Shown piece by piece: positions 3,643-20,713 of a stretch of DNA of 64,000 nt. The DNA comes from an uncultured Thalassospiraceae bacterium. GTDB taxonomy: Bacteria; Pseudomonadota; Alphaproteobacteria; Rhodospirillales; Casp-alpha2. Every line of letters begins with the position of its first letter. Within the stretch, counting starts at the first letter, position 1. Below the pieces are notes generated by a model. The model did no database searches and was not told where the DNA came from. It saw only the letters and a program-made list of their open reading frames with translations. The stretch covers positions 15,439 to 79,438 of the forward strand of contig CAZVFL010000002.1 in NCBI GenBank assembly GCA_964626025.1. The letters run 5' to 3'. The position numbers were made by a program, and so were the translations under genes.

Positions 3643-4713
3643 ATGAATATACTGGTGACGGGGGGAGCAGGCTTCATTGGCTCGGCGGTCATACGCCACA
3701 TTATCCGTAACACCGAAGACAACGTAGTCAATGTCGACAAGCTGACCTATGCCGGAAACTTGGACTCTGTTGAGGAAGTCAGTGGCAACAGCCGCTATTC
3801 GTTCAAGCAGGTAGATATCTGCAATCGTGCCACGTTGAACCGAATATTCGAACAGTTTCGCCCCGACGCTGTCATGCATTTGGCGGCTGAATCCCACGTA
3901 GACCGTTCCATTGACGGCCCTTCGCCTTTCATCGAGACGAATATCTTCGGCACCTACACCTTGTTGGAGGTGGCGCGAGAATATTGGGAGGCGCTGGATG
4001 AGGCAGCGCAACGGAGGTTCCGTTTTCACCACATTTCGACCGATGAGGTCTACGGGGATTTGGGGGGTACGGACGACCTGTTCGTGGAGACGATGGCCTA
4101 CGCACCAAGTTCTCCCTATTCGGCGAGCAAGGCCAGTTCCGACCACCTGGTACGGGCCTGGCATAGCACTTATGGTTTGCCGTGTGTTGTCAGTAACTGT
4201 TCCAACAATTACGGCCCATATCAATTCCCCGAGAAACTAATTCCTTTGATGATCATTAATGCATTGAACGGAAAGGGGTTGCCGGTCTACGGAAAAGGCA
4301 ATCAGGTGCGAGACTGGTTGTATGTCGAGGACCACGCCCGCGCGTTGTGCATGGTGCTCAAGAAGGGCATTCCTGGCGAAACATACAATATCGGTGGCCA
4401 CAACGAGATGCGTAATATCGATGTTGTTGCTATGATATGCGACATCCTGAACGAGCTTGTACCCCATAAACCGCGCGGTGTGTTGGCATTCGAGGACCTG
4501 ATAACGAATGTTCCGGATCGACCGGGCCACGACCTACGTTACGCGATCGATGCGAGCAAGATTGAGCGGGACTTGGGGTGGATTCCCGCCAAGAGTTTCG
4601 AGGGCGGGCTCCGCAAAACGGTTGAATGGTATTTGGGGAACGAGGGTTGGTGGCGGCGCGTGATGGATGGTAGCTACAATCGTCAGCGCATCAGTGGAAG
4701 AAATGTATCGTGA
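3643..4713 (+). CDS. rfbB: dTDP-glucose 4,6-dehydratase
   Basis: [16 protein letters not shown]...DKLTYAGN...[15 protein letters not shown]...[15 protein letters not shown]; internal ATG at 3643 chosen within ORF 3580..4713. Confidence 0.95.
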
Positions 4714-5588
4714 AGTGGAGGGGGATTGTCCTGGCCGGAGGATCGGGTTCGCGCCTGCATCCTGTCACTCGCAGCGTTTCTAAGCAGTTGCTGCCAATCT
4801 ATGACAAGCCGATGATTTATTACCCGTTGTCATTGCTGATGCTAGCGGGGATTCGCAATATTCTTATCATTAGCACGCCGAACGATTTGCCGCTGTACCG
4901 GCACTTGCTAGGCGATGGCAGTGACATCGGCGTGTCCTTCTCCTACGCGGAGCAGCCGCATCCAGATGGACTGGCGCAGGCTTTCATCATCGGCGAGGAA
5001 TTTATCCGCGGAGATCATGTTTGCCTCGTCCTGGGCGATAATATTTTTTATGGCCAGGGTCTGAAGGACAGCCTTGATAGGGCGAGCCATCACGAAACCG
5101 GGGCGACGGTATTCGGTTACCAGGTGCTCGATCCCGAACGTTTCGGAGTTGTCGAAATAGATGCAAACGGGCGCGCCGTTTCAATTGAGGAAAAGCCGGT
5201 CAAGCCGCGTTCGAATTACGCGGTCACGGGACTTTATTTCTATGACAATAATGTTGTGGACATTGCCAAGGGCCTGAAACCCTCGGCCAGGGGCGAACTT
5301 GAGATCACGGATGTGAACCGCGTTTATCTCGAACGTGGCGATCTCAATATCGAAGTATTAGGACGTGGTTTTGCTTGGCTCGATACCGGTACTCACGACA
5401 GCCTGATCGAAGCCGGGCAATTCATCCAGACCATCGAGCGTCGCCAGGGACTGAAGGTCGCCTGTATAGAGGAAATAGCCTGCCGAAACGGCTGGATCAG
5501 CGCGGAAAGTCTGATCGAATTGGGCAACCGATCGACGTCCAATGTCTATGGCCAGTATCTTCTGCACATCGGGCGTGAACTGAGGTGA
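4710..5588 (+). CDS. rfbA: glucose-1-phosphate thymidylyltransferase
   Basis: [37 protein letters not shown]...YGQYLL; GTG start overlaps the rfbB stop (GTGA). Confidence 0.95.
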
Positions 5589-5923: not shown

Positions 5924-6799
5924 ATGAAAATTTGTATTAGCTGTGGCCATCACTTTTCAGGAGAATCATGGCGTTGCCCGGAATGTACATTTGAACCACC
6001 CGTTGAGCGGGGGTTTTTGACGTTTGCGCCGGACCTTGCCTATGTAAATACAGGGTACGATCCCTCCTGGTATGAAGAATTGGCAACTTTGGAAGAGGGC
6101 AACTTCTGGTTCGTCACTCGAAACAAGTTAATCCTATGGGCCTTACAGAAGTTTTGTCCGGGTCTAGAGAGTTTCCTAGAACTTGGGTGCGGAACCGGCT
6201 ATGTCATTCGGGACATCTCAGCCCGCTTCGCCAATTGTCGATTGATGGGAAGCGAATTATGCGTGGAGGGTTTAGAGTATGCTGAAAAGCGGGTGAAGGG
6301 GCGTGCTACTTTAGTCCAAATGGATGCCACAAACATTCCATTCAAAGAGGAGTTCGATGGGGTCGGAATATTTGATGTAATTGAGCACATCGAGGATGAT
6401 TGCAAGGTATTAATGGAAACACATAAGGCTCTTAAAACGGGCGGCTTTCTTATTGCATCGGTGCCTCAACATATGTTTCTGTGGAGCAAATATGACGAAT
6501 TAGGGCACCACTCTAGGCGATACGAGCCTGGAGAACTCGAAAATAAAATGAAAGATGTGGGATTTCACGTTTTGTATACTAGTTCGTTTAATACTCTTTT
6601 ATTGCCGCTCATGTTGTTGTCTCGAAGTTTAAAAAAGAAATCAAAAGATGAGAACATAGATGTTTTGGAAGAGTTGCGAATACCCAGCGCCATTAACTTT
6701 GGGCTCAAAAGCATTTTAAATGCCGAAGTTATGCTGACCAAACTGGGCGTGCGCTGGCCCATTGGAGGCTCTCGCCTTATTTTGGCAAGAAAAAATTAG
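5924..6799 (+). CDS. class I SAM-dependent methyltransferase with N-terminal Cys4 zinc ribbon
   Basis: CISCGHHFSGESWRCPEC then LELGCGTGYV (motif I) and DVIEHIEDD; AT-rich gene. Confidence 0.8.
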   Translation: MKICISCGHHFSGESWRCPECTFEPPVERGFLTFAPDLAYVNTGYDPSWYEELATLEEGNFWFVTRNKLILWALQKFCPGLESFLELGCGTGYVIRDISARFANCRLMGSELCVEGLEYAEKRVKGRATLVQMDATNIPFKEEFDGVGIFDVIEHIEDDCKVLMETHKALKTGGFLIASVPQHMFLWSKYDELGHHSRRYEPGELENKMKDVGFHVLYTSSFNTLLLPLMLLSRSLKKKSKDENIDVLEELRIPSAINFGLKSILNAEVMLTKLGVRWPIGGSRLILARKN

Positions 6800-6829
6800 T
6801 TATTTACCGATTTACCGGCAATTATCACC

Positions 6830-6858
6830 TTGACATAGTAAGGCGCAATCGCTAGATT
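6830..6858 (+). promoter_or_regulatory. putative inward promoter inside IRL (TTGACA-N17-TAGATT) for the transposase
   Basis: TTGACA at 6830-6835, 17-nt spacer, TAGATT at 6853-6858, about 25 nt upstream of the transposase ATG. Confidence 0.45.
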
Positions 6859-6883
6859 AGGGGTGCAAGGTGAGGACTCCCCA

Positions 6884-7807
6884 ATGAGCGACTTTTCAAA
6901 TCCTATCTTCCACAACGAAACCAAGGCCCGCAAGTGGCTTGAGGCTCGCCTTTGGCCCGATGGCCCGATCTGCCCTCATTGCGGCACGATTGACGAAGCC
7001 ACACTCATGAAAGGCGAGTCACACCGTCCGGGCCTCTACAATTGCAACGCTTGCCGCCAGCCATTCACGGTGACTGTCGGGACGCTGTACGAGCGCTCGA
7101 AAATCCCGCTTCACAAGTGGCTTGCCGCCACGCATCTCATGATGGCCAGTAAGAAAGGCATGTCCGCACTTCAAATCGGTCGCTTATTGAGCCTGAGTAA
7201 GAAAACTGCTTGGTTTCTTTGCCACCGCATCCGCGAGTCGTTGCGCGAGTCAAAATTCGATGAACCGCTTGGCGGGCAGAACAAGGTTGTTGAAGCCGAC
7301 GAAACCTACGTCGGCGGGAAGGCCAAGAACCGCAAAGGCAAGGTTCCGCCCAAGGAAGCCGTAGTCGCCTTGGTCGAGCGCGACGGCAAGGTGCGCTCTT
7401 TTCACATTCCGGCCGTCAGCGCCAAGACACTGCGCCCGATCCTGGTCACTCAGGTTTCGCGCAAGAGCTACCTCATGACCGACGACTCGACCGTCTATCC
7501 CAAGATCGGTGAGGAATATGCCGGACACGGCACCGTCAATCACTCAATCGAGGAATACGTTCGCGGTGGCTTCTGGCATACCAACACCGTTGAAAACTAT
7601 TTCAGCATCCTCAAGCGCGGGATCACCGGAACATATCATCACGTCAGCCAGCAACACCTTAAGCGTTATCTTGCCGAGTTTGATTTCCGTTACAACGAGC
7701 GCTCTGCCCTTGGCGTGAGCGATGCCGAACGCATGGAAAAGTCGATCCAGGGCATTGTCGGCAAGCGCCTTACCTATCGGCGGGCTGATTTCAGGCCGAA
7801 CGTCTAA
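6884..7807 (+). CDS. IS1595-family transposase
   Basis: N-terminal Zn ribbon CPHCG...CNACR, ETYVGGK, DDSTVY, HTNTVENYFSILKRG...HLKRYLAEFDFRYN; ATG at 6884 has GGTGAGGA upstream. Confidence 0.9.
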   Translation: MSDFSNPIFHNETKARKWLEARLWPDGPICPHCGTIDEATLMKGESHRPGLYNCNACRQPFTVTVGTLYERSKIPLHKWLAATHLMMASKKGMSALQIGRLLSLSKKTAWFLCHRIRESLRESKFDEPLGGQNKVVEADETYVGGKAKNRKGKVPPKEAVVALVERDGKVRSFHIPAVSAKTLRPILVTQVSRKSYLMTDDSTVYPKIGEEYAGHGTVNHSIEEYVRGGFWHTNTVENYFSILKRGITGTYHHVSQQHLKRYLAEFDFRYNERSALGVSDAERMEKSIQGIVGKRLTYRRADFRPNV

Positions 7808-7980
7808 GCCGCAACTGACTCGTAAGCAGTTCTGCAAGATGTTGCGCTTGATCCGCACTCAATATCGTGCCGAGTGCCGAGCCGCCGCGTTCAACAAGCA
7901 GTCCTAGGTTTGATTCGGCCCCGCTACACGAGACTTGTATAGTTCCGTTCTTAGTGTCCACCACGCGAACGGAGGCTTCC

Positions 7981-8250
7981 ATGGGCGTGCTTGACGACAT
8001 TATTAAGACCCTTGACCGCATCCCCGTTTGGAAGCGGCTCCAAATTATTCCAGAAGAGGTTGACGATCTACGCAATCGCGTAGTTGAGCTAGAAGAAAAG
8101 CTTGGCGGCAAATGGCCGCCTGACGTTTGTAAGTTTTGCGGGGCACGCGCCGCGCGGTTAACTGGAACCCGCGGCCCAGACGCAAAGGGGAAATTGTATC
8201 AGCTTTGGGGGTGCGGAGAGTGCAGCAACGTAGAGCGACGACTAGCCTGA
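7981..8250 (+). CDS. hypothetical small protein, helical N-terminus plus C-terminal CxxC...CxxC zinc ribbon (IS cargo)
   Basis: ATG at 7981 preceded by GGAGG; CKFCG...CGEC; no recognisable family. Confidence 0.5.
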   Translation: MGVLDDIIKTLDRIPVWKRLQIIPEEVDDLRNRVVELEEKLGGKWPPDVCKFCGARAARLTGTRGPDAKGKLYQLWGCGECSNVERRLA

Positions 8251-8436
8251 TCGATTTTCGCCCTTCTGCACCTTTTTCTTCGGCTTCCGCTTTTCTCCCT
8301 TCGCCGTTCGGTGCTTCGGTCCGCTCTTGACCGCAGCGTCAACCGCGCGCTCGAACTGTTCCCATGCGTCGGGAACCAGCTCGATATTCTTACCGGGTTT
8401 CTGATCGGTTTTGGTTTTTAGTTTCATCTTGGTCAT
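8242..8436 (-). CDS. hypothetical small Lys-rich protein (IS cargo)
   Basis: MTKMKLKTKTDQKPGKNIELVPDAWEQFERAVDAAVKSGPKHR...; start uncertain and no clear RBS. Confidence 0.35.
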   Translation of the reverse strand: MTKMKLKTKTDQKPGKNIELVPDAWEQFERAVDAAVKSGPKHRTAKGEKRKPKKKVQKGENRSG

Positions 8437-8487
8437 AAGGAAACTATCCGCAGACACATCGAATGAGCAAGGAGGGGAGACGAGCAA

Positions 8488-9108
8488 ATGGCCACAAAAA
8501 GACAGATCGCCGCAATCGAGCTATACGCGAATCTCATGGCCGAAATTAAGGTTCGCACACGGTCGATTGAAACGGCGTGTAGCGGCCAGACCGGAATCCC
8601 AAGCCCACTAGTCAGGGAGTTTTGCTACCTCCAACTCCGAATGATCTGCGAGCTGATCGCCCTGGGCTGCCTCACCGCCCATGGCGATATTAAGGGGGCA
8701 CAAACAAGCAAATTCGCCAAAGAATACTCCGCAGATCGAATCCTTTCGATGCTCGAAAAGCTACATCCCGACTTCTATCCGAAGCCTGTGAAACACACAA
8801 AGGTTGGCCCCAGTCGGCACCAACTTGTGGACATTAAGGACGGCTTTATGACCAAAGCTGAATTATTGCGGCTGAACACAAAATGCGGTGCCGTACTTCA
8901 CCGGGGTAGCGTCAAAAAGCTGCTCACCGACAACATGTCAATTCAGGCGAACTATCCTGAGATAATGGGCACGGTCGAAAAAATCGTCGCCTTACTCCGA
9001 GACCATCGCCTCTTACTTCTCGGAGGCCAAATCGGAATAATCTGTGCGCTCGAATTACCGACCACCGGCAAAGTGCAGGTGGCTATTGCTGAGGCGCAGG
9101 AAGAATAG
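8488..9108 (+). CDS. hypothetical protein, 206 aa (IS cargo)
   Basis: ATG preceded by AGGAGG about 10 nt upstream; no family recognised. Confidence 0.55.
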   Translation: MATKRQIAAIELYANLMAEIKVRTRSIETACSGQTGIPSPLVREFCYLQLRMICELIALGCLTAHGDIKGAQTSKFAKEYSADRILSMLEKLHPDFYPKPVKHTKVGPSRHQLVDIKDGFMTKAELLRLNTKCGAVLHRGSVKKLLTDNMSIQANYPEIMGTVEKIVALLRDHRLLLLGGQIGIICALELPTTGKVQVAIAEAQEE

Positions 9109-9361
9109 CTACGATCTTCCAGTTTACGATGCCGCCGGCGTCATCTAGCCAGCTAACCTCATCCCCGACCCGAAACTCATGCTCCACCTTAGGCGCAGCC
9201 TCAATCTCATCCTGTATAGAATCGCGACGTTCGCGGGCTGAAGCATATTGGACCACCCCGCGAATCATCTCATTCTTGACGGATAACTCAGAGACGCCCG
9301 TCTCGGTCATCTCGGGAGTAATCTCAATCTCGGCACCGGCCTTTCCGTCCCTATTTACCAT
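9083..9361 (-). CDS. hypothetical protein, 92 aa (IS cargo)
   Basis: ORF starts about 10 nt inside IRR, whose TTGACA faces inward; no family recognised. Confidence 0.4.
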   Translation of the reverse strand: MVNRDGKAGAEIEITPEMTETGVSELSVKNEMIRGVVQYASARERRDSIQDEIEAAPKVEHEFRVGDEVSWLDDAGGIVNWKIVAILPAPQQ

Positions 9362-9487
9362 ATATCGGGCCTACTATGTCAAGGTGATAATTGCCGATTT
9401 ACCGATAAGTATTTATTGCTCAATTTTACAATTAATATATTCATACTTAGCTCTATAGAAGCAACTATTTCAGGTTTTCTCACCTGA

Positions 9488-9680
9488 AGAATTAACTCGG
9501 TCATGACTATTCCTGGAAAATCTGGATTGGTTACTAAATTTGGCGGCAGCAATTCGCATATGGCCATTCGTTGTGCTGAACTGGGTATTCCAGCGGCGAT
9601 TGGGTGCGGTGAGCAGACCTTCGACCGGGTCATAGAAGGAAAAACAATTTACTTGGATTGCGCTTCCAAGCTTTTAAACC
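9488..9680 (+). pseudogene. C-terminal stump of a PEP-utilising-enzyme mobile (phosphohistidine) domain protein
   Basis: GLVTKFGGSNSHMAIRCAELGIPAAIGCG is the swivelling-His motif. There is an in-frame TGA at 9485 and only AT-rich junk upstream. Confidence 0.55.
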
Positions 9681-9912
9681 AGGGGACCGCATCCAACGGC
9701 GGTGGGACATCGGTTACGAAGCGTCCGTCGCGAATGGAGGGCTCCGTGGAGATATCTGAAAGCCGATGTTCAAAACTCTTCACGCCGGCACGGAGCCGTT
9801 CGCGCTCATCTTCCGAGAGCACGTTCCGGAGGACAACAACTCCTTTGTTATGCAGTTCGCCGGCAATTTCAGCCAATCTTTCTGGCGTTAGATCAGCAGA
9901 CATCACCGGCAT
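9649..9912 (-). pseudogene. short ORF, possibly the N-terminal fragment of a PhyH-like Fe/2OG dioxygenase
   Basis: LTPERLAEIAGELHNKGVVVLRNVLSEDERERL resembles PhyH N-termini; only 87 aa; weak. Confidence 0.3.
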
Positions 9913-10016
9913 AGGTCAGCTTGTCCAAATTGAGGACAAGGTGCCCCTCGCGCACTGAGATGACGCACAAGGGCAGAACCAATGAAGCCATGCCCTCCTG
10001 TGAGGAGGATTTTCAT
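9905..10016 (-). pseudogene. frameshifted 5' remnant of a second rfbB
   Basis: Reverse strand shows GGAGG, then ATG, then MKILLTGGHGFIGSALVRHL. The DKLTYAG motif continues in another frame (VREGHLVLNLDKLTYAGDV). Confidence 0.55.
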
Positions 10017-10073
10017 TCATCCCTCCATCGCGGTTCAAAACTGCTGAATGACAATATCACAGCCAAATTCTGT

Positions 10074-11015
10074 TCATGAGAATCGTGTGCGGAATTTGTT
10101 GAGAGGCAGCAGCGATACTTCCTCACCATCTTCATTATCACTCACCGCCGAGCAGACCCGAAGAAGTCCTGAACCACAAACCACGATGGGGTGTCCTTCT
10201 TGAACAAAGATGATTTTCCCCGGCGTTCTATTTTCAATATGCACATCGCCTAGCGCGTCTGCTTCCAGCACGCGCGCGGGACGGTTATTGATTAGCGTAA
10301 ACGCGCCCTTATAGGGAAAGCTAACGGCATCCACAAAGCGTTTGATCTCGGCCGCAGACTTGGTCCAGTCGATATGATAGTCCTGATCGTCCCGCCACAG
10401 GCTGTAGCTTGCGTCGGCCTCTTCCTGTGGCTGACCGTCCAAGGGGTGGCCCCGCATTATTTTCGAAGTTATTTCGGTGGCAAGACTCACATAACAATCG
10501 GTTATCGTATCGATGGCTTGTTGTATTGTTAGCGGGTAGGTAATGCTCTTCGCGTCCTGCGCGATGATATCGCCTTTATCATATTCATCATGAGAAAATA
10601 AAGCGGTTACGCCGATTTCATGGTCTCCGTTAATCAAACTTGAGACCAGCGGGCCAAAGCCACGGTAGCGCGGCAATAAAGAATCGTGAAAAATAATTAA
10701 TTCGGTTTGTTCAAGATTGATAAGCCAGCGCCATGATATGGCAAAGGCGTATTCGGACGTTATTTTTATTTCATCTCTCCTGTTAAAAAACTTTATATTA
10801 TGCTGTCCGCAATGCCTTTTTATCTCATCGAAATAATCTTTTAATACATTTTCATCGGAGGCTGAAACAACAACGTCTATAACGTTTTTGCATTTCGCTG
10901 TCAGCGCCTGAAGAACGGCTAAACCTTTTTGCCCAGTAAGAAAAAGAGCTAGTGTTGGCATTGTTTCGGAAATCCTCATCTTGTCTTCTGATTGTCTTCT
11001 GACAGGTGACGACAT
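10074..11015 (-). CDS. formyltransferase (Fmt/ArnA-N-like), probable sugar N-formyltransferase
   Basis: IIFHDSLLPRYRGFGPL (the HxSLLPxxRG formyltransferase motif) and a C-terminal Fmt-like domain. True start is probably an internal Met (MRIS at 10979 or MPTL at 10961). Confidence 0.8.
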   Translation of the reverse strand: MSSPVRRQSEDKMRISETMPTLALFLTGQKGLAVLQALTAKCKNVIDVVVSASDENVLKDYFDEIKRHCGQHNIKFFNRRDEIKITSEYAFAISWRWLINLEQTELIIFHDSLLPRYRGFGPLVSSLINGDHEIGVTALFSHDEYDKGDIIAQDAKSITYPLTIQQAIDTITDCYVSLATEITSKIMRGHPLDGQPQEEADASYSLWRDDQDYHIDWTKSAAEIKRFVDAVSFPYKGAFTLINNRPARVLEADALGDVHIENRTPGKIIFVQEGHPIVVCGSGLLRVCSAVSDNEDGEEVSLLPLNKFRTRFS

Positions 11016-11129
11016 GTGAACCGATATTTCCCGTGTAGCTTTCTATTCGTTGCCGATCAAACTCAAATTGCGCCGCCGTTGTTGTGGTTTTACCTCCGCA
11101 GTCGTCCGATTGCTTGATTTTGGTGAGTT

Positions 11130-11377
11130 AGCCGATGAGGACAACGGGATAATATTCGTCCAGAACGTGCTTGTCGGCATGGTCTCGTTGCCCGGATGAT
11201 CTCATACCCTGAAAGAGGCGCAAATTATTATCGAAGAATGGAGAAACCATTACAACACTAAGAGGCCGCACAGTGTTTTGGGCGACCACCCACCGGCTTC
11301 GGAAACCGCCATTCCGTTAGACCAAAGGCCGGTAATGCACTAACATTTAAGGCTGACCGCTTCGTGGGGGCAGGTTA
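11130..11377 (+). mobile_element. IS3-family right-end remnant (decayed OrfB C-terminus plus terminal IR)
   Basis: LKEAQIIIEEWRNHYNTKRPHSVLGDHPPA then a stop, followed by ...CTTCGTGGGGGCAGGTTA. Confidence 0.65.
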
Positions 11378-11432
11378 ACTTGGACTGACAAATTTTAACC
11401 CACCCCTTATCTAGAGTAGTTATGGGTACTTA

Positions 11433-12386
11433 ATGAGCTCTGAGCGTCCCCACATATCTGCTGTTAGCCCCGTTTTCCAAGCGGAAGAATGTATCCCCGA
11501 ATTGTATCGCCGTCTTAGTAACGCATTGGGAAGCATATCCGATAATTTCGAGATCATCCTTGTTGAGGATTGCGGCGATGATTCATCTTGGAATTTAATT
11601 ACCAAAATCGCGGAAAAAGATAGCCGCGTTAAGGGCATAAAGCTGGGCCGGAACTTCGGGCAGCACTACGCCATTACAGCAGGGCTTGATATCGCCGAAG
11701 GTGATTGGGTGGTAATCCTGGATTGCGACCTCCAGGACCCACCCGAGGCTATTCCCAAACTCTATGCTAAAGCGCAGGAAGGGTTTGATGTTGTTGAAGC
11801 AGAGTTTGTTAATCGCGATAGTGATTATTTTGGATTCCGATCTTGGTTATTTTGGAAAACTCTAAGTTTTCTGTCAAAGATGAAATTTAATCACAAAATT
11901 GGAAACTTTCGTATTATATCAAGAAAAGTTTTGATCAATTTTAAGAACTTCAGGGAACAACTCCGCTTTTTGGGCGGCATTTTATTGCTAATGGGATTTG
12001 ATACCGCACGGATACCTATTGCGCGGGAAAATCGCTTTGCTGGAAAGACAAGCTATTCCTTGCGAAGAATGATTTTCATGTCGATGGATATAATAATTGC
12101 GTACTCGGATAGGCCTCTAAAACTATCTATCGCATTTGGGTTTTTTATTTCTACTTTATCATTTTTATTTGGTATTTATGTATTTATTTTGTACATATTT
12201 GGTATTACTGAAATAACCGGGTGGCCAAGCTTAATAATTTCGATCTATTTTATTGGCGGTATTATTATAGCAAATTTGGGACTACTGGGAATCTATGTTG
12301 GGCGGACATTTGATGAAACGAAAAACCGCCCCCTATACATCATAGATAAAACGACATTTAATATAAATAACGTTGAGAAAAACTGA
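11433..12386 (+). CDS. GT2 polyprenyl-phosphate glycosyltransferase (ArnC/GtrB-like)
   Basis: ISAVSPVFQAEECIPELYRRL...EIILVEDCGDD...DCDLQDPPE plus two C-terminal TM helices; AT-rich. Confidence 0.85.
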   Translation: MSSERPHISAVSPVFQAEECIPELYRRLSNALGSISDNFEIILVEDCGDDSSWNLITKIAEKDSRVKGIKLGRNFGQHYAITAGLDIAEGDWVVILDCDLQDPPEAIPKLYAKAQEGFDVVEAEFVNRDSDYFGFRSWLFWKTLSFLSKMKFNHKIGNFRIISRKVLINFKNFREQLRFLGGILLLMGFDTARIPIARENRFAGKTSYSLRRMIFMSMDIIIAYSDRPLKLSIAFGFFISTLSFLFGIYVFILYIFGITEITGWPSLIISIYFIGGIIIANLGLLGIYVGRTFDETKNRPLYIIDKTTFNINNVEKN

Positions 12387-12600
12387 CTTGATTTTCTAAA
12401 AAACTAAATAAAACCGATATCAAAAATATTAGCACTGCGTTTATCATCTAATATTTTTAGCGGATTTATTAAATATTTATAAGGATTTTAAATCCTTAGA
12501 TGGTCAGGGCCAAGTCCGCTGAGATAGTGGGCTTTCTTTTTATCCTATATACAGCGAGATTTATCTCACCGTTCAAGCGCGAAAATTATTTAATCCGACG

Positions 12601-13743
12601 TTGGAGAAAAACGTGCGAATTCCCTTAAGCCGTCCACGAATTACCAGCAAAGAACGAGAGTATGTCCTTAAGGCTCTCAATAGCGGAGATATTTCGGGGG
12701 ATGGCAAGTTTTCCCAGAAGTGCCATCTACTTCTAGGCAAAGATACAGGATGTGAACATGCTCTTCTAACTCACTCCTGTACCGCGGCTTTGGAGATGGC
12801 GGGACTGTTAATCGACCTTCAGCCGGGCGATGAGGTTATTATGCCATCGTACGCTTTCGTCTCTACGGCGACAGCAGTGACCCTTCGTGGGGCGATGCCG
12901 GTCTTTGTGGATATTAGGGAGGACACTTTCAACCTTGATGAAAAACTGATTGAGCCTGCCGTTACTGACCGCACAAAAGCTATTTTTGTCGTCCATTATG
13001 CTGGGGTGGCATCCGATATGGAGCCAATAATGACCATCGCAAGGGAACATAATTTGTTTGTCGTAGAAGACGCGGCTCAGGCTTATAAAGCCACATATAA
13101 CGGACAGGCTTTGGGAACCATTGGTGATTATGGGGCATTAAGCTTTCATGTTACGAAAAATATTCAATCAGGAGAGGGGGGCGCCCTACTCATAAATAAT
13201 CATGAAAATATAGAACGTGCTGAGATATTAAGGGAAAAAGGGACTAATCGGAGGGCATTTTTAGCAGGTGAAGTCGATAAATACACTTGGGTTGACCACG
13301 GATCCTCTTATCTTCCATCGGATTTGATAGCGGCTTGTTTGCTTGCACAACTCGAAGATGCGGAGGAGATAACTGCAGCTCGGTTAAAGATTTGGAACAG
13401 GTATCACGAGTTGCTGACCCCCGAAACGAAATCTGGAAACTTTCGCTGTCCGATTATACCTGATTATGCGTCACATAATGCCCATATGTACCCAATACTT
13501 TTAGAAAATTCAGAAGTGCGTAATAAAGTACAAGCAGATTTATGCCGCAAAAGTATTCAAGCGACGTTCCACTATATCCCATTACATTCTTCTCCTGCGG
13601 GGCTACGTTATGGTCGGGCCGCAGGTCAGATGGACGTAACAGACAATGTGGCCGCACGTATTTTGAGGTTGCCATTGTATCCAAACTTGAGCACGGACGA
13701 ACAAAGCAAGGTTGTTGAGTTATTGTTAGACTCAATGCCCTGA
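12601..13743 (+). CDS. wecE: dTDP-4-amino-4,6-dideoxyhexose transaminase (DegT/WecE type)
   Basis: Close resemblance to E. coli WecE along the length: LTHSCTAALEMAGLLIDLQPGDEVIMPSYAFVSTA...VHYAGV...NLFVVEDAAQA...REKGTNR...VDKYTWVD.GSSY. Start is TTG 12601 or GTG 12613. Confidence 0.9.
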   Translation: MEKNVRIPLSRPRITSKEREYVLKALNSGDISGDGKFSQKCHLLLGKDTGCEHALLTHSCTAALEMAGLLIDLQPGDEVIMPSYAFVSTATAVTLRGAMPVFVDIREDTFNLDEKLIEPAVTDRTKAIFVVHYAGVASDMEPIMTIAREHNLFVVEDAAQAYKATYNGQALGTIGDYGALSFHVTKNIQSGEGGALLINNHENIERAEILREKGTNRRAFLAGEVDKYTWVDHGSSYLPSDLIAACLLAQLEDAEEITAARLKIWNRYHELLTPETKSGNFRCPIIPDYASHNAHMYPILLENSEVRNKVQADLCRKSIQATFHYIPLHSSPAGLRYGRAAGQMDVTDNVAARILRLPLYPNLSTDEQSKVVELLLDSMP

Positions 13744-13827
13744 ATTTTTAGTTGCATCTTTCTATTGTTTTTAGAATTTTCGCGTAAGGGAGTTTGTTTT
13801 GTACTGGCAGCGCGTGGAGGTCTTGTC

Positions 13828-14439
13828 GTGAGAGGCGTTGCCGTAAGCCAGCGCGTCGACGTCTGGGAAAGTCGGAACGAACGGCGCGACGCTTTGGATC
13901 AACGCTTGGCCGGCTGGTTAGCGCAAGCCGGTTTTGTGCCGTTTCCCGTTCCCAATTCCCTGTCGCAAGGGCAATTGGAGGAATGGCTTGGCGGGGTGAA
14001 GCCAGGCGCCTGTCTGCTGTCGGGAGGAAACGAAATCGGCGATCCGCTCGAGCGTGACCGGACCGAGGCGCAATTGCTGAAGTACGCGCAACGCCAACGG
14101 CTCCCTCTTTTAGGGATATGTCGAGGCATGCAATTCATGGCGGCCCGTGCCGGGGTGGAGTTGCGTCGCCTCGACGGTCACATTGCAACTCGACACGCGA
14201 TTACGATGGCTCCCGATGCGGAAGGGGAGCTGCCGGGCGAGGTGAACAGTTTCCATGGTTGGGGGCTAAAGGAGCCCCCCTCCGGGTATAAGGTCCTTGC
14301 ACGCGCGACGCACGACGGCACCGTCGAAGCGATAAGCCACAATTCCTTACCCTGGGAAGGATGGATGTGGCACCCCGAGCGAGAGGAGTCATTTTGTGAT
14401 ATTCAGTTGGGGCGATTGCAAGGCTTGTTCGGAAAGTAG
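13828..14439 (+). CDS. class I glutamine-amidotransferase-like hydrolase (peptidase C26 family)
   Basis: LLGICRGMQ (nucleophile elbow) and WHPE near the C-terminus; GTG 13828 preceded by GGAGG. Confidence 0.8.
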   Translation: MRGVAVSQRVDVWESRNERRDALDQRLAGWLAQAGFVPFPVPNSLSQGQLEEWLGGVKPGACLLSGGNEIGDPLERDRTEAQLLKYAQRQRLPLLGICRGMQFMAARAGVELRRLDGHIATRHAITMAPDAEGELPGEVNSFHGWGLKEPPSGYKVLARATHDGTVEAISHNSLPWEGWMWHPEREESFCDIQLGRLQGLFGK

Positions 14440-14531
14440 AAAGCATTCGTGGCACCGCTGACCGATGGAATATATACAGATTCTATTGGCTTGGGCATTG
14501 ATTGGCTTCGAGCATGAATATCAGGTGATCT

Positions 14532-15266
14532 ATGAATGCGATTATTTTGGCGGCTGGCCGCGGTCGCCGTATGAAGGATAAGACCGACGGTCGTCCCAAG
14601 TGCCTTGTCGAACTTCGAGGTCGTCCATTGCTTGAATGGCAGTTGGACGCGTTGCTCGAAGCCGGCATCGACGACATCGGCATCGTGACCGGATACAAGC
14701 GAGAGATGCTGGCCAAATGGGCGTTCAACGAATTTCATAACCCGCATTGGGCACAGACCAACATGCTGTCCTCACTTGCCTGTGCGGAGGAATGGCTGAA
14801 GGAAGGCCCCTGCATCGTCAGCTACTCGGACATTTTCTACGATCCTTCCGCGATCCAGGCACTGATGGAATGTGATGCCCCGATTGCGATTACCTATGAC
14901 CCGCGCTGGCTTGAGCTTTGGAGGAAGCGGTTCGAGGACCCTTTATCCGACGCAGAGACCTTTCGATTGAACGCGGACTCAACACTTGCAGAAATCGGTG
15001 ATAAGGCTTCAACGACTGACGAGATCGAAGGGCAGTATATGGGACTGTTGCGCTTTACCCCAGAGGGATGGGGCGAGGTGGAACTCATCCGGACAAGTGT
15101 AACATCAGACGTTTGCGATAAGATGCACATGACCGGTATGCTGCAACGGGTTATTGTGGCGGCCCGCATGCCGATCACTGCCCTACCTTTTGAAGGCGAA
15201 TGGGGAGAGGTGGATACCCCGGATGATCTGGCCGTCTACCAGGATTTGCAGGGCGGTTCCTTATGA
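14532..15266 (+). CDS. LicC-like phospho-substrate cytidylyl/nucleotidyltransferase
   Basis: MNAIILAAGRGRRM...RPKCLVEL... then WLELWRKRFEDPLSDAETF and EGQYMGLLRF. Confidence 0.8.
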   Translation: MNAIILAAGRGRRMKDKTDGRPKCLVELRGRPLLEWQLDALLEAGIDDIGIVTGYKREMLAKWAFNEFHNPHWAQTNMLSSLACAEEWLKEGPCIVSYSDIFYDPSAIQALMECDAPIAITYDPRWLELWRKRFEDPLSDAETFRLNADSTLAEIGDKASTTDEIEGQYMGLLRFTPEGWGEVELIRTSVTSDVCDKMHMTGMLQRVIVAARMPITALPFEGEWGEVDTPDDLAVYQDLQGGSL

Positions 15267-15438
15267 ACGATCTTCCGGCGCCGCAACCGGACTGCCTGCC
15301 AAAGGGGGAACCTCGCGCAGCATGCTGATGATATGTTCAGGGGTATAGGCGTTTACGGCTCATTCGTTCCTCCTTATCTAGGATTAGAATGCGCCAAACT
15401 CTCTCATAGGCGTTGGACCACTTCGTGGGGGCAGGTCA
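15267..15438 (-). mobile_element. IS3-family left-end remnant (IRL plus first ~30 codons of OrfA)
   Basis: Reverse strand reads TGACCTGCCCCCACGAAGTGGTCC...TAAGGAGGAACGA ATG then MSRKRLYPEHIISMLREV. Confidence 0.65.
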
Positions 15439-15718
15439 CGACTTCAAGGTAATTTCTTGAACCAGGAAAAAACTTAGTCACCACCCAAAAGATTAGCCGA
15501 TTACATCCCTTGAACCAAAAGCTATCGTCCTCAATGGACGCGAGCGCCTCGAATGCGGCGGGATCAAAGATGTCCTCCGTTTCGCTCTTTGAAAGCGGCA
15601 GCAATTGGACCACGCCTTCAATAGCCAGCGGCCTTTTTTCGCAACGCAGGCAAATCCATTCTTTCGTATGGATCGTGGCGGAACAAAAAAGACAAAGTTT
15701 CATGAGATGCGCCGACAA
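15439..15718 (-). pseudogene. 5' part of a second Zn-ribbon methyltransferase, truncated by the IS3 end
   Basis: CLFCSATIHTKEWICLRC...EDDSFWFKGCNRLIFWVV.KFFPG parallels CISCG...CPEC...EEGNFWFVTRNKLILWAL.KFCPG of the 5924 gene. It stops before motif I at the IS inverted repeat. Confidence 0.65.
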
Positions 15719-15744
15719 TCTTCATGTAACCGACAACACGGCGT

Positions 15745-17913
15745 TCATTGCGATTCGGGGATCGAGAATACGGTCACCGAGAAAATCTTTGCCCGTGTTC
15801 CGACGGGGCTCGCGGAGTTCCTGAAAATAAGGTATTCGGCATCGGATATTTCGTCGAGCCGGACATAGGCGAAGCGACTGTCGCCGGAAGGGCCGATCCT
15901 CGCCTCGTCCAGCAACTTGGAAGTATTTCCACGCTCGGTAACGGTAATTCCAAGAAATCCGTCTTCAACCTTTAACCTTACCCGGACGATCGCCGGTCCT
16001 GCCAGGTCGGCCAAAGCATTCGGCAGCAATTTTGTTTGCGCCGAATAGTTCCATGACACAGACGTCGTAGCCAGGGATATGCCGTCCGGAATTGTTTCAA
16101 TCCGGCCGCCGTTGATCCCTTCCAGATCGTCCAGCGACACCTGAAACAGTACTTTGCCGACTGGTCTTGGTTGCGGAATTATTTCCACAACGGCGAGAGC
16201 ATAACCCCAATCTTGCCCCTTGAATTGGTCGGCGACGACCGGCTTGAACGAAACCCCGTTTTCTGCCAACGCCGCGATGCCGTTCGAAACCTCTTTTTCG
16301 GTCATTCCAAGAAGGGCAAGAAAGCGCGCCTCCCCTACGTGATCGAGGAAATACTTATCAGCGACCAACATTCCCACGGTTTCAGCTACATAGGCGAGAC
16401 TGTAGCTATAAAGAAACGTCGATTGGACCGACGGTAAATAATAGCCCTTGCCCGGCTGGCCGGAATACTGGCCGGAATACCAAAACCGCACGCGGCCGAC
16501 CCGTGGCGGCCCCAAACCATTGATCGTTTTCTGGAGAAACCGCGCCCCCTGATAGACGTCCCGCTCCAAGGTACGCGCGGTCTCGGAATGAAGTCTCGCC
16601 ATCCCATCGAACGCATAACCCTTTACCGCCCAATTTATTGTGGCCAGAAATACAAGACTGGACGCGATCGCGACGGAGGATAAAGCGAAGCGTGGTAGGA
16701 CCCTTGAAAGAACGGCCCCCACCGGGATGAACACCAACATGGCCGCATAGATATCTTGATTCTGAACGCCAATCAGGCCTGGAATATGTTGGCCGGCAAT
16801 CCAAAAAATCAAATGAACCGCCAAACAAGAAAAAATGACAGTTTTCTGTGTCTCCCCTCCTTTTACGTGCAACTCTCCAATGATAACAATCATGGACAAG
16901 AAAACGGCCGGAACAAAATATATTAAATAATAATGAAGACCCCAGATTCCAGATTTAAAAACAATGTGCAAAATAAAATATATAATTATTACAATCAACA
17001 GATATACGGTTGACGCGCCAAATAAACGTTTATGTTGAAGCCGCCCCCCCGCCGCCACGCCAAGGGCGATCGCGCCGGACAAAAAGGCGAAAGGGAATAT
17101 CGCCTGATAGAGCCCGCGTGAAAATATGATCTCGAAGCCATGATACCAGCGCGCTCCCCCTCCCTCGAGCAGCCACCGCGCCATCGAAATCGCCGGTTTT
17201 TCAAAGAAGAAACCGAACGCCGGGTAGAACAGGGCCATGGCGGAACCCATCACTACGTAGGCGCCGACAAAGCCGCCAACGATCCAGGCGGTCTTCGCGA
17301 CTATCCTGCGATAGGGCAGCCCCCATTGTGTTATGAGCCACGGCAAGCCGAAGGCACCGGCGATTGCAAACGTGAAGGTGTTCGTGTTTGTCGCAAGGGC
17401 AAACATCATGCCGGCGAAAAACGACTTCGCGGACGACGACCTGTCCTCAATGACCAGTAGCCCAACCCCCGCAAGAAGGTAGATCGCGGCCACTCCGTCG
17501 TAGTGGTCGCTAAGAAGCGAGAGCAAAATCCAGGGATTGAACGCAAAAAAGACGGCCCAAAAAACGCTCACGGACACCGAGAAAAATTTCTTGGATACGC
17601 CGAAAACAGTCGCCGTGCCGGCCACAAGAAGCACGTACCGGAATACGTGGTATCCGGCATCTTCGCCCAGAACCCAAATGAAAAACCGCGCAGGGAAGAT
17701 AAATGCAATCCGCGCCGCGTAATAAGTCGGCCCATAACGCTCAATCAGATTGTCGTAATCGTGGATGTAGCCCGTATAGATGAACGCGTCGAGCCCACCT
17801 GCCTGGAATATCGTCGCCTTGATACTCAATAGCGCCAGAAGCGGTAAGCCCCATATCACCGCGACCGATTGCCACTCTCGAGCCAAATACTGTTTCAGCG
17901 TCTTCAATTTCAT
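15745..17913 (-). CDS. large polytopic membrane protein with ~250-aa C-terminal soluble domain; candidate GT-C-fold glycosyltransferase
   Basis: More than 12 hydrophobic segments and an acidic first loop (IHDYDNL); start set at MKLKTLKQY (17913). Fold assignment is inference only. Confidence 0.6.
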   Translation of the reverse strand: MKLKTLKQYLAREWQSVAVIWGLPLLALLSIKATIFQAGGLDAFIYTGYIHDYDNLIERYGPTYYAARIAFIFPARFFIWVLGEDAGYHVFRYVLLVAGTATVFGVSKKFFSVSVSVFWAVFFAFNPWILLSLLSDHYDGVAAIYLLAGVGLLVIEDRSSSAKSFFAGMMFALATNTNTFTFAIAGAFGLPWLITQWGLPYRRIVAKTAWIVGGFVGAYVVMGSAMALFYPAFGFFFEKPAISMARWLLEGGGARWYHGFEIIFSRGLYQAIFPFAFLSGAIALGVAAGGRLQHKRLFGASTVYLLIVIIIYFILHIVFKSGIWGLHYYLIYFVPAVFLSMIVIIGELHVKGGETQKTVIFSCLAVHLIFWIAGQHIPGLIGVQNQDIYAAMLVFIPVGAVLSRVLPRFALSSVAIASSLVFLATINWAVKGYAFDGMARLHSETARTLERDVYQGARFLQKTINGLGPPRVGRVRFWYSGQYSGQPGKGYYLPSVQSTFLYSYSLAYVAETVGMLVADKYFLDHVGEARFLALLGMTEKEVSNGIAALAENGVSFKPVVADQFKGQDWGYALAVVEIIPQPRPVGKVLFQVSLDDLEGINGGRIETIPDGISLATTSVSWNYSAQTKLLPNALADLAGPAIVRVRLKVEDGFLGITVTERGNTSKLLDEARIGPSGDSRFAYVRLDEISDAEYLIFRNSASPVGTRAKIFSVTVFSIPESQ

Positions 17914-18198
17914 GACGGTCTCAATAACGCAAAAAAACTCCACGAAACAGCGATTTTTGGCAATGTCGCGGGTTTGGCCATTCACAGCCATACGCGGATA
18001 TCGGCCACCCGGACCAAAGCGAATCGATCGGTCATCACGGCATGGCATCCCGGGGTGGATTCCCTAGACCGGTTGCAGTATTATCGGGCGTCGGCGGACG
18101 TTACGTGCGTCGCCCGTTGTTTTAGAATCGGATCCTAAGATCGCGGCGACCGGACCGGCGGCACCTATTCAACCCGTCATGGATCAAAGCGGACTTCC

Positions 18199-19242
18199 GT
18201 GGAAAACATCAACGACCAACCGAAAGTGCTTTCACGCCTCGTCGGCGCGGGGGTTTTCAGCGACCAGCCTTTTACGTTGTTCGATGTCGGATGCAGCGGC
18301 GGCATTCACGAGGCTTGGCGAGCGTTCGGCCCCCGGACCGCGGCGTATGGATTCGATCCGCAGGCAACCGAGTGCCAAAGGCTTCAGGCGGCCGAGCCTT
18401 CGCCGTCGATCGAATACGTTTCGACCTACGTCGGCCTGCCGGACGATCACCCGATAAAAAGAGACCGGCTTGCCGCCAACAACGCGGGAATCGCCGGGCA
18501 GATCAATCCGTGGTCACGGTTGAGCACGGCGGAGGCGATTTCGCGAACCGATCTTCAATCCCAGTCCCAACCCATTCACGAGGACCTTGTGCCCGCTGAT
18601 CAAATCGTCTCCATCGCCGACTTCGTGGCGGCGCAGGAATTAGCGTACGTCGATTTCATCAAGGTCGATACCGACGGATCCGATCTTGATGTCGTCATAT
18701 CCGCCGAACCCATCCTTGAAAGCCATCGCGTGCTCGGACTGTACATCGAGGTCAATTTTATCGGCGGCCACGAAGAATACGAAAACACCTTCCTGAATAT
18801 CGACAGGGTGCTTCGCCGGCACGGTTATTCCCTGTTCGACCTTAGCCTTCGCCGCTACTCGCGCGCAGCACTGCCGCTGCCGTTCGAATACAACATCCTT
18901 GCCCAGACCCATGGCGGCCAGCCGATCCAGGGCGATGCGTTGTACCTTCGTGATTTTGGCGCCCCCGACTATGAGGAAACCTGGCCCGACATCATAAGCG
19001 CTGACAACATTCAGAAATTATTGGGCCTTTTCGATCTTTTCAGTTTGCCGGACTGTGCCGCCGAGATATTGACGAACCGCCGCGAGATGCTTGCCCCGAT
19101 CATCGACGTCGATGAATTGCTTGACCTGTTGACCCCGCCCCTCGACGGTCGTCAAACCGACTATCAGTCATACGTTTCCGCGTTCAGGGAGAACCCGGCC
19201 CGGTTCTTTCCCGGAACCGCCTCCAAGGCTGGAGGGAACTAA
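18199..19242 (+). CDS. FkbM-family methyltransferase
   Basis: LFDVGCSGG...DFIKVDTDGSDLDV; GTG start uncertain. Confidence 0.7.
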   Translation: MENINDQPKVLSRLVGAGVFSDQPFTLFDVGCSGGIHEAWRAFGPRTAAYGFDPQATECQRLQAAEPSPSIEYVSTYVGLPDDHPIKRDRLAANNAGIAGQINPWSRLSTAEAISRTDLQSQSQPIHEDLVPADQIVSIADFVAAQELAYVDFIKVDTDGSDLDVVISAEPILESHRVLGLYIEVNFIGGHEEYENTFLNIDRVLRRHGYSLFDLSLRRYSRAALPLPFEYNILAQTHGGQPIQGDALYLRDFGAPDYEETWPDIISADNIQKLLGLFDLFSLPDCAAEILTNRREMLAPIIDVDELLDLLTPPLDGRQTDYQSYVSAFRENPARFFPGTASKAGGN

Positions 19243-19249
19243 CCCACTT

Positions 19250-19413
19250 CCCGTCGCCGGTGGCTAAAGGAAAAGGCCGCCGGATTGTTTCGTCGATAAA
19301 GACATGAGTTTGGCGCGAACGCCGTTTGGGGATGAAATGCACAACGATCATTACGCAACGGATGAATTCAACGGGAAATTCCCAACCCAGGGCCACTTCG
19401 TGGGGGCAGGTCA
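19250..19413 (+). mobile_element. IS3-family terminal remnant
   Basis: Ends in CCACTTCGTGGGGGCAGGTCA, the same terminus as at 15438; a composition switch follows. Confidence 0.45.
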
Positions 19414-19487
19414 CAACACGACGCGTAAAATCGTATTTACTGTGGATGAAACTAGATAGAGCCAATTGAAATTTTGCGGAGAGTTGC

Positions 19488-19680
19488 ATGGGCTTCCAAA
19501 TTCGAGGATTAACACTGAAATTCGCGGCTGAGATAAGTGGCCTCAATCTTGCGAACCCAGTTAAGGAGCAGGACAAGTCATCCTTGAAAAAGGCCCTGTG
19601 CAACTTTGCAGTTCTAGTTATTTGTGGGCAAGAAGCGCTTACCAAGGCTCGTATGATGGAGTTCGCCAGCCTGATTGGTC
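19488..19680 (+). pseudogene. N-terminal fragment of a TauD/TfdA-family dioxygenase
   Basis: FAAEISGLNLANPV...LKKAL.NFAVLVICGQ.LT...MMEFASLIG parallels the N-terminus of the intact TauD-like gene at 52168-52998. Confidence 0.4.
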
Positions 19681-20029
19681 ACCATAGACGATGTCGTCTA
19701 TAGCGTCTTGCTCTGAGGCTAAATGGCAGGTGTTAGCAGAATATAAGAAATATTTCCCAATATGGGGGCCGATGATCGAAGATATCAAATCCAAAGAAAG
19801 CTTTCGAAATCTCGTCGAACAAGACATTTCAGATTTAAACCTGACCTTTAAAAGCGGACAGATTAGTTACTATATCCGCAAAGTTCTAAGTGGCTCCTGA
19901 CACACATCGAAACAGGATCTGTCTTCAAAATGCCTTTCAAACGGCTGCTGGCACGGTGGCGACAAGACGGGGCGCGTAACCAAGCGTCGGTCGTCCACCG
20001 CGAGCTGGCGACGGAGAAACCACCGCCGG

Positions 20030-20713
20030 ATGGGGGTACCGAGGCATTCGATACCCCCCGAGGCCGTGTCCATCAACAAGGCGCGGCTGGACCATCTGGC
20101 CTCTTTGGACCTCCCGCTCGACGGCAAGCGTGTGCTCGATGTCGGTTGCGGTGTCGGCCATCATGCCAAGTTTTATGTCGATCGGGGGTGTGAGGCTAAT
20201 TGCGTCGATGCCCGCGAGGCGAACATCGAGGCTCTCAAACTCCTGCACCCCGAACTCGACGCCCATACGCGCGACGTCGAACGCGACGATTTAAGCGATC
20301 TTGGCCGCTTCGACGTCGTCCACTGTTACGGGCTTCTTTACCACCTTGAAAACCCCATGGCCGCCTTGCGCAATATTGCGGCCGTATGCGACGAGTTGAT
20401 GATTATCGAGACGATCATCTGCGATCATCCGTTGCCGGTCCTTCGAATCGAGGACGAATACCTGTCCGCGAACCAGGCCCTGCACGGCGTCGCCTCGCGG
20501 CCGAGCCCGGCATACATCGCCATGGCCTTGAACCGCATCGGGTTCGATCACGTCTATCGTTGCCTGACGGTGCCCGATCATGAGGATTTTCACTTTCCGA
20601 TGATCAGCGATCTGAGCAGCCAGCGCGACGGACACAATATCCGCATGGTATTCGTCGCGTCCCGCAGGTCCCTGGCCAGCGATCGGTTGGCCCCCATGGT
20701 CCGTTCTTCGTGA
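20030..20713 (+). CDS. class I SAM-dependent methyltransferase
   Basis: KRVLDVGCGVGHH (motif I), DVVHCYGLLYHL. Confidence 0.75.
   Translation: MGVPRHSIPPEAVSINKARLDHLASLDLPLDGKRVLDVGCGVGHHAKFYVDRGCEANCVDAREANIEALKLLHPELDAHTRDVERDDLSDLGRFDVVHCYGLLYHLENPMAALRNIAAVCDELMIIETIICDHPLPVLRIEDEYLSANQALHGVASRPSPAYIAMALNRIGFDHVYRCLTVPDHEDFHFPMISDLSSQRDGHNIRMVFVASRRSLASDRLAPMVRSS

Follow-up and report, generated by a model that had tools for sequence, protein, structure and literature searches.

A decayed gene cassette, probably for a phosphoramidate donor, in an alphaproteobacterial polysaccharide locus

We analysed a stretch of 64,000 nucleotides, hereafter the window, from an uncultured Thalassospiraceae bacterium (contig CAZVFL010000002.1 of assembly GCA_964626025.1). 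Two adjacent genes of a polysaccharide locus in this window, encoding a hydrolase and a nucleotidyltransferase, are most likely the middle of a pathway that makes a phosphoramidate donor, now non-functional in cis. The kinase gene that accompanies them in related loci is reduced here to a stump and a short tail. What the window holds is the decayed copy of a pathway type already known rather than a new system that works; phosphoramidate modification should not be predicted for this polysaccharide locus.

The reference pathway is that of Campylobacter jejuni, in which we take Cj1418 to be the L-glutamine kinase, Cj1416 the cytidine triphosphate (CTP):phosphoglutamine cytidylyltransferase, Cj1417 the gamma-glutamyl-CDP-amidate hydrolase (CDP, cytidine diphosphate), and Cj1415 the cytidine diphosphoramidate kinase. 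Cj1415-Cj1418 make CDP-phosphoramidate 3'-phosphate from glutamine, adenosine triphosphate (ATP) and CTP, and the adjoining Cj1419 and Cj1420 are S-adenosylmethionine (SAM) methyltransferases (PMC11800397). Glycans carrying O-methyl phosphoramidate (MeOPN) are described as restricted to Campylobacter (PMC6429109, PMC3907429), the one exception in the literature searched being a preprint that notes a similar gene cluster in Borg elements. The transfer step of the phosphoramidate is listed as unresolved by the Raushel laboratory (PMC12409886).

Two intact genes and their context

13828-14439, plus strand: Cj1417-like hydrolase, 203 aa, GTG start; intact open reading frame (ORF), class-I glutamine-amidotransferase fold
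14532-15266, plus strand: Cj1416-like nucleotidyltransferase (LicC fold), 244 aa, intact; Pfam NTP_transf_3

The hydrolase matches Peptidase_C26 and GATase in Pfam, and its triad, Cys98 (GICRGMQ), His182 and Glu184 (WHPE), lies in invariant columns of an alignment of 16 family members. Among curated profiles its best match was not PuuD: the top NCBIfam model was NF045546 (gamma-glutamyl-CDP-amidate hydrolase), with 85 bits end-to-end (residues 4-191 on model positions 3-187 of 198), versus 46 bits for the runner-up family. The PuuD model, NF008471, ranked fourth with 37 bits and did not reach its cutoff of 266. NF045546 was also the top model for all of the aligned hydrolase relatives tested (16/16). 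In the transferase, NTP_transf_3 covers residues 3-122 and the N-terminal LAAGxGxR...K motif is present: ILAAGRGRRMKDKTDGRPK. Its closest solved structure is LicC (PDB 1jyk), with a match limited to residues 2-91.

Homologue searches returned more than 4,000 relatives of the hydrolase and more than 6,900 of the transferase. On family hidden Markov models (HMMs) built from the comparison loci described below, the hydrolase scored 278.9 bits, where members span 257-337, and the transferase ranked 33rd of 87, with 371.7 bits. Both ORFs have kept Shine-Dalgarno-like sequences. The names carried by relatives differ between databases. RefSeq/PGAP calls them "gamma-glutamyl-gamma-aminobutyrate hydrolase family protein" and "phosphocholine cytidylyltransferase family protein". 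IMG names relatives that are 65-71% identical after the Cj1417, Cj1416 and Cj1418 reactions, that is "N5-(cytidine 5'-diphosphoramidyl)-L-glutamine hydrolase", "L-glutamine-phosphate cytidylyltransferase" (on transferase relatives of 67-71% identity) and, for the kinase discussed next, "glutamine kinase". When the hydrolase, transferase, kinase and adenosine phosphosulfate (APS)-kinase-like proteins were searched against PDB sequences, no Campylobacter entry came up, and no Campylobacter protein was among the 120 closest matches listed in each of three homologue searches.

A scan of species-representative genomes gave at least 542 matching stretches. The comparison set consists of the best 80 of these plus contigs from an exact look-up; the kinase was counted in 81 loci, which represent many phyla, and 82 loci were clustered. 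The transferase lies 3' of the hydrolase in the window and in 80 of the 82 clustered loci. A full-length PRK05849-type kinase of ~770 aa stands beside the hydrolase in 75 of 81 loci (in a second architecture, type B, ~2 kb upstream). Four of the remaining cases are cut by a contig end; L061 has no kinase, and there too the contig ends. Only L055, a Rhodospirillaceae metagenome-assembled genome (MAG), is truly truncated: at 7570-10001 the N-terminal half of the kinase is gone, a transposase fragment of an IS3-type insertion sequence (IS) lies directly upstream, and both the APS-kinase-like gene and the methyltransferase are absent. It is an independent decay event. L069 and L061 had been considered as further kinase-less loci and were rejected, since L069 has a scaffold gap and L061 stops at the end of its contig. 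An APS-kinase-like gene is found in 74 of the 82 clustered loci, and one subtype of ~250-260-aa methyltransferase in at least 62. The genes are tightly clustered, often overlapping, most commonly in the order APS-kinase, methyltransferase, kinase, hydrolase, transferase. On PRK05849 the kinase of L002 reaches 940 bits, for a cutoff of 501.

It is this context, the full-length PRK05849-type kinase and the APS-kinase-like gene, that decides the assignment of the pair to a phosphoramidate cassette. An initial annotation, made from the letters alone, had described both ORFs as above and had likened them to Cj1417 and Cj1416. The ORFs proved to be as described, and the Cj1417/Cj1416 reading of the pair is supported by the NF045546 score of the hydrolase against that of PuuD, by synteny with the kinase and APS-kinase-like genes, and by the IMG names.

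A kinase gene split by a foreign block

9521-9670, plus strand: L-glutamine-kinase stump, codons ~725-774 of ~780; phosphohistidine "swivel" domain with GGSNSHMAIR motif, ending ...IYLDCASK
9671-13810: foreign block, 4,140 bp, splitting the kinase gene seven codons ahead of its stop
9899-10016, minus strand, inside the block: N-terminal fragment of an rmlB-like epimerase/dehydratase, ~37 codons; 73-75% identity (tblastn) to the L086 rmlB N-terminus, Pfam Epimerase positions 1-23
10074-11015, minus strand, inside the block: formyltransferase, by family match
11433-12386, plus strand, inside the block: ArnC/PgfS-like family 2 glycosyltransferase (GT2), by family match
12601-13743, plus strand, inside the block: WecE-like dTDP-4-amino-4,6-dideoxyhexose aminotransferase, by family match
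13811-13831, plus strand: kinase tail RVEVLS*, the last six codons and stop in the kinase frame; its TGA overlaps the hydrolase GTG (GTGA)

The ORF that holds the stump (9503-9958) matches the mobile domain of phosphoenolpyruvate (PEP) utilizers with its residues 7-57 (Pfam positions 24-71 of 72) and the end of NF004508/PRK05849, at positions 734-784 of 789, with an E value of 3e-22, versus 1e-8 for pyruvate phosphate dikinase. By tblastn the stump is 50-53% identical to residues ~719-774 of intact cassette kinases. It is, on sequence grounds, a true remnant of a PRK05849-type kinase.

The other end of the gene lies 4.1 kb downstream. We conclude from the sequence that a single kinase gene is split by the block, because the stump ends at 9670, the RVEVLS* tail is found at 13811-13831, the consensus C-terminus of 74 intact kinases reads ...DCAGRRVEVLA/S, and DNA homology to the comparator contig L086 (see below) sets in at 13809. 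Of the kinase-hydrolase junction only the six kinase codons and the GTGA overlap are left, and the first ~724 codons of the kinase are missing. G+C content is 32-50% in the block versus 55-62% in the hydrolase and transferase genes, with a jump at the junction. Repeats flanking the 4.14-kb block were looked for and none was found.

Upstream losses and an insertion sequence

3580-5588, plus strand: rmlB and rmlA, 74% and 76% identity to L086; shared backbone of the locus
5924-6799, plus strand: intact Zn-ribbon SAM methyltransferase (Methyltransf_11/25), 50% identity to and collinear with the 291-aa methyltransferase of L086
6801-9411: IS1595-family element, 2,611 bp; 40-nt terminal inverted repeats at 6801-6840 and 9372-9411, 85% complementary
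6863-7807: IS1595-family transposase (transposase domains, NF033547)
7867-8250, 8488-9108 and 9083-9361 (the last on the minus strand): passenger ORFs of the IS without family match, the first with a C-terminal CxxC...CxxC, the second of 206 aa
15440-15703, minus strand: N-terminal fragment of a second Zn-ribbon methyltransferase, ~87 codons; 41% identity (tblastn) to residues 1-87 of the L086 291-aa methyltransferase; in a 104-aa ORF without Pfam match

Cassette proteins of three intact loci were compared with the whole window by tblastn. Matches were obtained to the hydrolase (57%), to the transferase (62-72%, the identity to the hydrolase-following transferase of intact cassettes) and to kinase residues ~719-774. 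No APS-kinase-like gene, cassette methyltransferase, CysQ-like gene, sulfotransferase-like gene or full kinase was found in the 64 kb, nor a second copy of any cassette gene; of the ~770-790-aa kinase with its N-terminal ATP-binding domain, the stump and the six-codon tail remain.

The former content of positions 6800-9520 is suggested by the gene order of L086, a 10-kb Logan contig with rmlB, rmlA, a 291-aa Zn-ribbon methyltransferase, a sulfotransferase-domain protein, a GT2, an APS-kinase-like gene, a 260-aa methyltransferase, a 773-aa kinase, the hydrolase and the transferase. The window is collinear with it at both ends (rmlB 74%, rmlA 76%, 291-aa methyltransferase 50%, hydrolase 57%, transferase 72%), with a GT2 identity of 53%. 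L086 is a cousin of the locus and not its ancestor, so that the ancestral gene order of the window is an inference. At the site expected for the upstream cassette genes the window has the IS, the right end of which is 110 bp upstream of the kinase stump. On the left the element directly adjoins the stop codon of the Zn-ribbon methyltransferase gene (5924-6799). A target-site duplication was looked for and not found. The layout fits, without proving it, an IS-associated deletion of the upstream part of the cassette. We infer the mechanism of both rearrangements, because the IS has no target-site duplication and the block no flanking repeats.

Several statements of the initial annotation bear on this region. 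The phosphohistidine domain it placed at 9488-9680 is real and of the PEP type, with protein-level homology confined to 9521-9670. It had stated that neither an intact glutamine kinase nor a Cj1415-like kinase is present, and this holds across the window: intact cassette kinases found only the remnants, and three APS-kinase-like queries found no match (E≤0.01 for those of L002 and L005, E≤0.001 for that of L086). The intact Zn-ribbon methyltransferase is confirmed at 5924-6799. The second is indeed truncated to an N-terminal fragment, but it was wrongly called IS-truncated, since it is not adjacent to an IS. The suggested correspondence of the two with Cj1419 and Cj1420 is unsupported; they are of accessory types, and the conserved ~260-aa methyltransferase of the cassette itself is absent.

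Proposed pathway and alternative explanations

By analogy with the Campylobacter biochemistry, the kinase of an intact cassette would N-phosphorylate L-glutamine, the transferase would convert the product with CTP to CDP-L-glutamine, and the hydrolase would strip off the glutamyl group to leave CDP-amidate. The APS-kinase-like enzyme would then phosphorylate CDP-amidate at the 3' position, giving a donor that resembles 3'-phosphoadenosine 5'-phosphosulfate (PAPS). In the window, two events would have put an end to this route: insertion of the low-GC block seven codons ahead of the kinase stop, and loss of the first ~724 kinase codons along with the genes that preceded them (APS-kinase-like, methyltransferase and putative transferase), at the site where the IS1595-family element lies. 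The hydrolase and transferase genes are now probably read through from the inserted GT2 and aminotransferase genes. With no glutamine kinase in cis, their products would be without substrate, so that the locus alone cannot modify a glycan with phosphoramidate. The pathway had been suspected to be broken or completed elsewhere, and for this locus it is broken, with the kinase destroyed and no Cj1415-like gene in the window.

Several points weigh against this interpretation. A score of 85 bits is far under the equivalog cutoff of 250 for NF045546, and the L002 hydrolase, with 93 bits, is likewise under it; the window hydrolase is, by its sequence, a distant Cj1417 relative and not an NCBI-grade equivalog. 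The Cj1416 assignment of the transferase rests, in sequence terms, on the IMG names of its relatives. Both surviving ORFs are undecayed, and they could be used with a kinase encoded outside the window. The absence of a target-site duplication makes the role of the IS in the deletion circumstantial. Lastly, phosphoramidate glycans outside Campylobacter were not found reported in the literature searched, and the chemistry of the environmental cassettes is argued by analogy.

The intactness of the two ORFs lends itself to other explanations. The pathway could be alive in trans, with the glutamine kinase, the APS-kinase-like enzyme and the transferase for the final step encoded elsewhere in the genome and the pair supplying the middle steps. 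Typical family-HMM scores and the retained start codons with Shine-Dalgarno-like sequences would agree with this, as would the lack of a terminator-like site between the aminotransferase and hydrolase genes (promoter and terminator scans gave counts at background level), and the window is only 64 kb of the genome. The tight, often overlapping arrangement of cassette genes in the comparison loci speaks against such dispersal, as do the single copy of each cassette gene remnant in the window and the case of L055, the sole other truly truncated locus, which also resembles IS-linked decay. We consider survival in trans improbable, if less so than the next two explanations.

That the pair has no phosphoramidate role, and is simply a PuuD-type gamma-glutamyl-amine hydrolase next to a LicC-type phosphocholine or phosphonate cytidylyltransferase, is what the PGAP names of relatives, the LicC structure 1jyk as closest solved relative, and the hydrolase score below the NF045546 cutoff would suggest. 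This is contradicted by the PuuD score of 37 bits against 85 for NF045546, by a LicC match of only ~90 N-terminal residues, by near-universal synteny with a PRK05849 kinase and an APS-kinase-like gene, by the newer IMG names, which match the Campylobacter reactions, and by the neighbouring ORFs scanned, none of which has a choline-kinase or LicD-type domain; we regard it as very unlikely. No more weight can be given to the idea that, after loss of the kinase, the formamido-sugar module of the inserted block (aminotransferase, formyltransferase, GT2) co-opted the pair for another reaction, for example activating or trimming a different phospho- or gamma-glutamyl intermediate. The pair directly follows the GT2 and aminotransferase genes, in the same orientation and 84 bp after the aminotransferase stop, and both ORFs are intact. 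However, intactness is equally well explained by a recent break, an aminotransferase-hydrolase adjacency without kinase occurs in none of the other 82 loci, and all family-invariant residues are kept, which argues against a new specificity. The most likely reading of the pair is still the stranded middle of a phosphoramidate-donor pathway.

Partner genes and variants of intact cassettes

The initial annotation had pointed to a phosphoramidate module outside Campylobacter. The cassette type does occur there, but it is not rare: the search of related genomes for intact versions, with the kinase and APS-kinase-like counts given above, shows that hundreds of species other than Campylobacter have kept a Cj1415-Cj1418-type gene set together in one tight cassette, under generic RefSeq names. 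Relatives are found in Pseudomonas, Leptospira, Marinobacter, Aeromonas, Prochlorococcus, Synechococcus, Rhizobium, Nitrospira and many MAGs. Cultured strains with an intact cassette include Pseudomonas putida GM4FR, Marinobacter oulmenensis DSM 22359, Aeromonas piscicola LMG 24783 and Leptospira alexanderi.

Genes with a sulfotransferase domain (PF00685/PF13469) are present in at least 29 of the 82 loci, directly 5' of the APS-kinase-like gene or 3' of the transferase, and a gene for a CysQ-like 3'(2'),5'-bisphosphate nucleotidase lies between hydrolase and transferase in about 10:

L002 3922-6353, L005 5198-6367, L009 3408-4517 and L086 3154-4059: examples of sulfotransferase-domain genes
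L005 10611-11372, also L010, L018-L020, L030, L056, L057, L068 and L070: CysQ-like gene, 194 bits on TIGR01331 (cutoff 229)

From their sequence, the sulfotransferase-fold proteins are candidates for phosphoramidate transfer from a PAPS-like 3'-phospho-CDP-amidate donor, and the position of the CysQ-like gene would suit an enzyme that recycles a cytidine 3',5'-bisphosphate by-product. Extending the analogy, we tentatively propose, as an idea that has somewhat less than even chances, that the five-gene cassette makes 3'-phospho-CDP-amidate as a PAPS analogue, that O-antigen or flagellar glycans receive the (methyl)phosphoramidate through sulfotransferase-fold enzymes, and that the CysQ-like phosphatase recycles the 3',5'-bisphosphate.

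In the slot 5' of the APS-kinase-like gene, L047 (5170-6381) and 13 similar loci (Pseudomonas spp., Castellaniella, Rhizobium) have instead a conserved protein of ~400 aa without Pfam match, which may be another transferase family. Its identification as a divergent sulfotransferase was rejected, as hhalign gave a probability of 0.2% against the sulfotransferase-like set. The type B architecture, with kinase and APS-kinase genes ~2 kb upstream of the hydrolase/transferase pair, is that of L011, L014, L017, L025, L028, L048, L059 and L073; its kinase and transferase share no more than 34-43% identity with those of the main type. Just 5' of the hydrolase, L061 and L073 have a formyltransferase-like ORF and/or a methyltransferase.

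Some cassettes may modify flagellin glycans instead of O-antigen, because in the Rhodocyclaceae MAG of L002 (at 15204-20660) an intact cassette is found directly upstream of flagellin, flaG, fliD and fliS. On a Vibrio alfacsensis plasmid (NZ_CP140104.1, L087, 3104-11682), a 995-aa kinase is followed by the hydrolase, the transferase and a gene of the CDP-glycerol glycerophosphotransferase family, with cysD and cysN adjacent and divergently oriented.

Other features of the window

The backbone of the window is chromosomal DNA of ~60-65% GC, with genes such as CobT, isocitrate dehydrogenase and an AroB-like gene. Near the low-GC formyltransferase/GT2/aminotransferase module, which lies downstream of rmlA and rmlB, positions 15745-18048 encode a 767-aa multi-pass membrane protein without Pfam or NCBIfam match. 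Judged from sequence, the module (10074-13743) and this protein look like an Arn/Gtr-style route, in which a 4-formamido-4,6-dideoxyhexose would be built on a lipid carrier for periplasmic transfer, and the membrane protein could be an unrecognised transferase of that route. At the edge of the polysaccharide cluster, two paralogous AsnB-type asparagine synthases (24779-26791 and 31036-33042, both on the minus strand) stand on either side of a 939-aa double GT4 glycosyltransferase. Their substrate in the glycan may be a uronic acid or a similar residue, which they would amidate.

Implications

For annotation, genes named "PuuD-family hydrolase" and "phosphocholine cytidylyltransferase" in this locus are to be corrected to remnants of a phosphoramidate-donor cassette. 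The most interesting lead is that the intact cassette, with its PAPS-like logic, is widespread though poorly annotated beyond Campylobacter. If the proposal holds, phosphoramidate glycans would be common in nature and not a Campylobacter speciality, and the sulfotransferase fold would be named as a candidate for the uncharacterised transfer step. Cultured strains with intact cassettes put the spread of phosphoramidate glycans within reach of 31P nuclear magnetic resonance.

Comparison with known systems

The C. jejuni MeOPN pathway and the cassette have four enzyme folds in common, and the core order kinase-hydrolase-transferase is found in the relatives of the window locus. The best curated profile of the window hydrolase is the Cj1417 model, the PRK05849 kinases of its relatives bear the IMG name "glutamine kinase", and SAM methyltransferases adjoin the cassettes as Cj1419 and Cj1420 do in Campylobacter. 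The differences are several. The hydrolase is distant (85 bits for an equivalog cutoff of 250), and the APS-kinase and methyltransferase genes are placed otherwise, ahead of the kinase. The window is an O-antigen-type locus of the rml/wzm-wzt kind and some relatives are flagellar, whereas in Campylobacter the genes belong to the kps capsule locus. Relatives of the cassette often have sulfotransferase-fold and CysQ-like partners, and in the window itself the kinase is destroyed and a Cj1415-like gene is lacking.

PuuD, the gamma-glutamyl-GABA (gamma-aminobutyrate) hydrolase of the Peptidase C26 family, shares with the window hydrolase the class-I amidotransferase fold, the Cys-His-Glu triad and the RefSeq name given to relatives. 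It differs in its lower profile score (37 versus 85 bits) and in its putrescine-utilisation context, in place of which the hydrolase has synteny with kinase and transferase genes. LicC, the CTP:phosphocholine cytidylyltransferase (1jyk), has the nucleotidyltransferase fold and N-terminal nucleotide-binding motif of the transferase. The similarity is confined to ~90 N-terminal residues, however, and the transferase is paired with a hydrolase and a kinase, with no choline-kinase or LicD-type partner among the neighbours scanned.

The PAPS system consists of the APS kinase CysC, sulfotransferases and CysQ, counterparts of which are all absent from the window by tblastn. The donor made by a cassette would also differ, in that it would bear phosphoramidate on CDP, not sulfate on adenosine monophosphate. 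In the intact cassettes of other genomes the likeness is closer: they have a CysC-like kinase, sulfotransferase-fold genes in at least 29 of 82 loci and CysQ-like genes in about 10, a set that, by analogy, fits the logic of a 3'-phospho-nucleotide donor.

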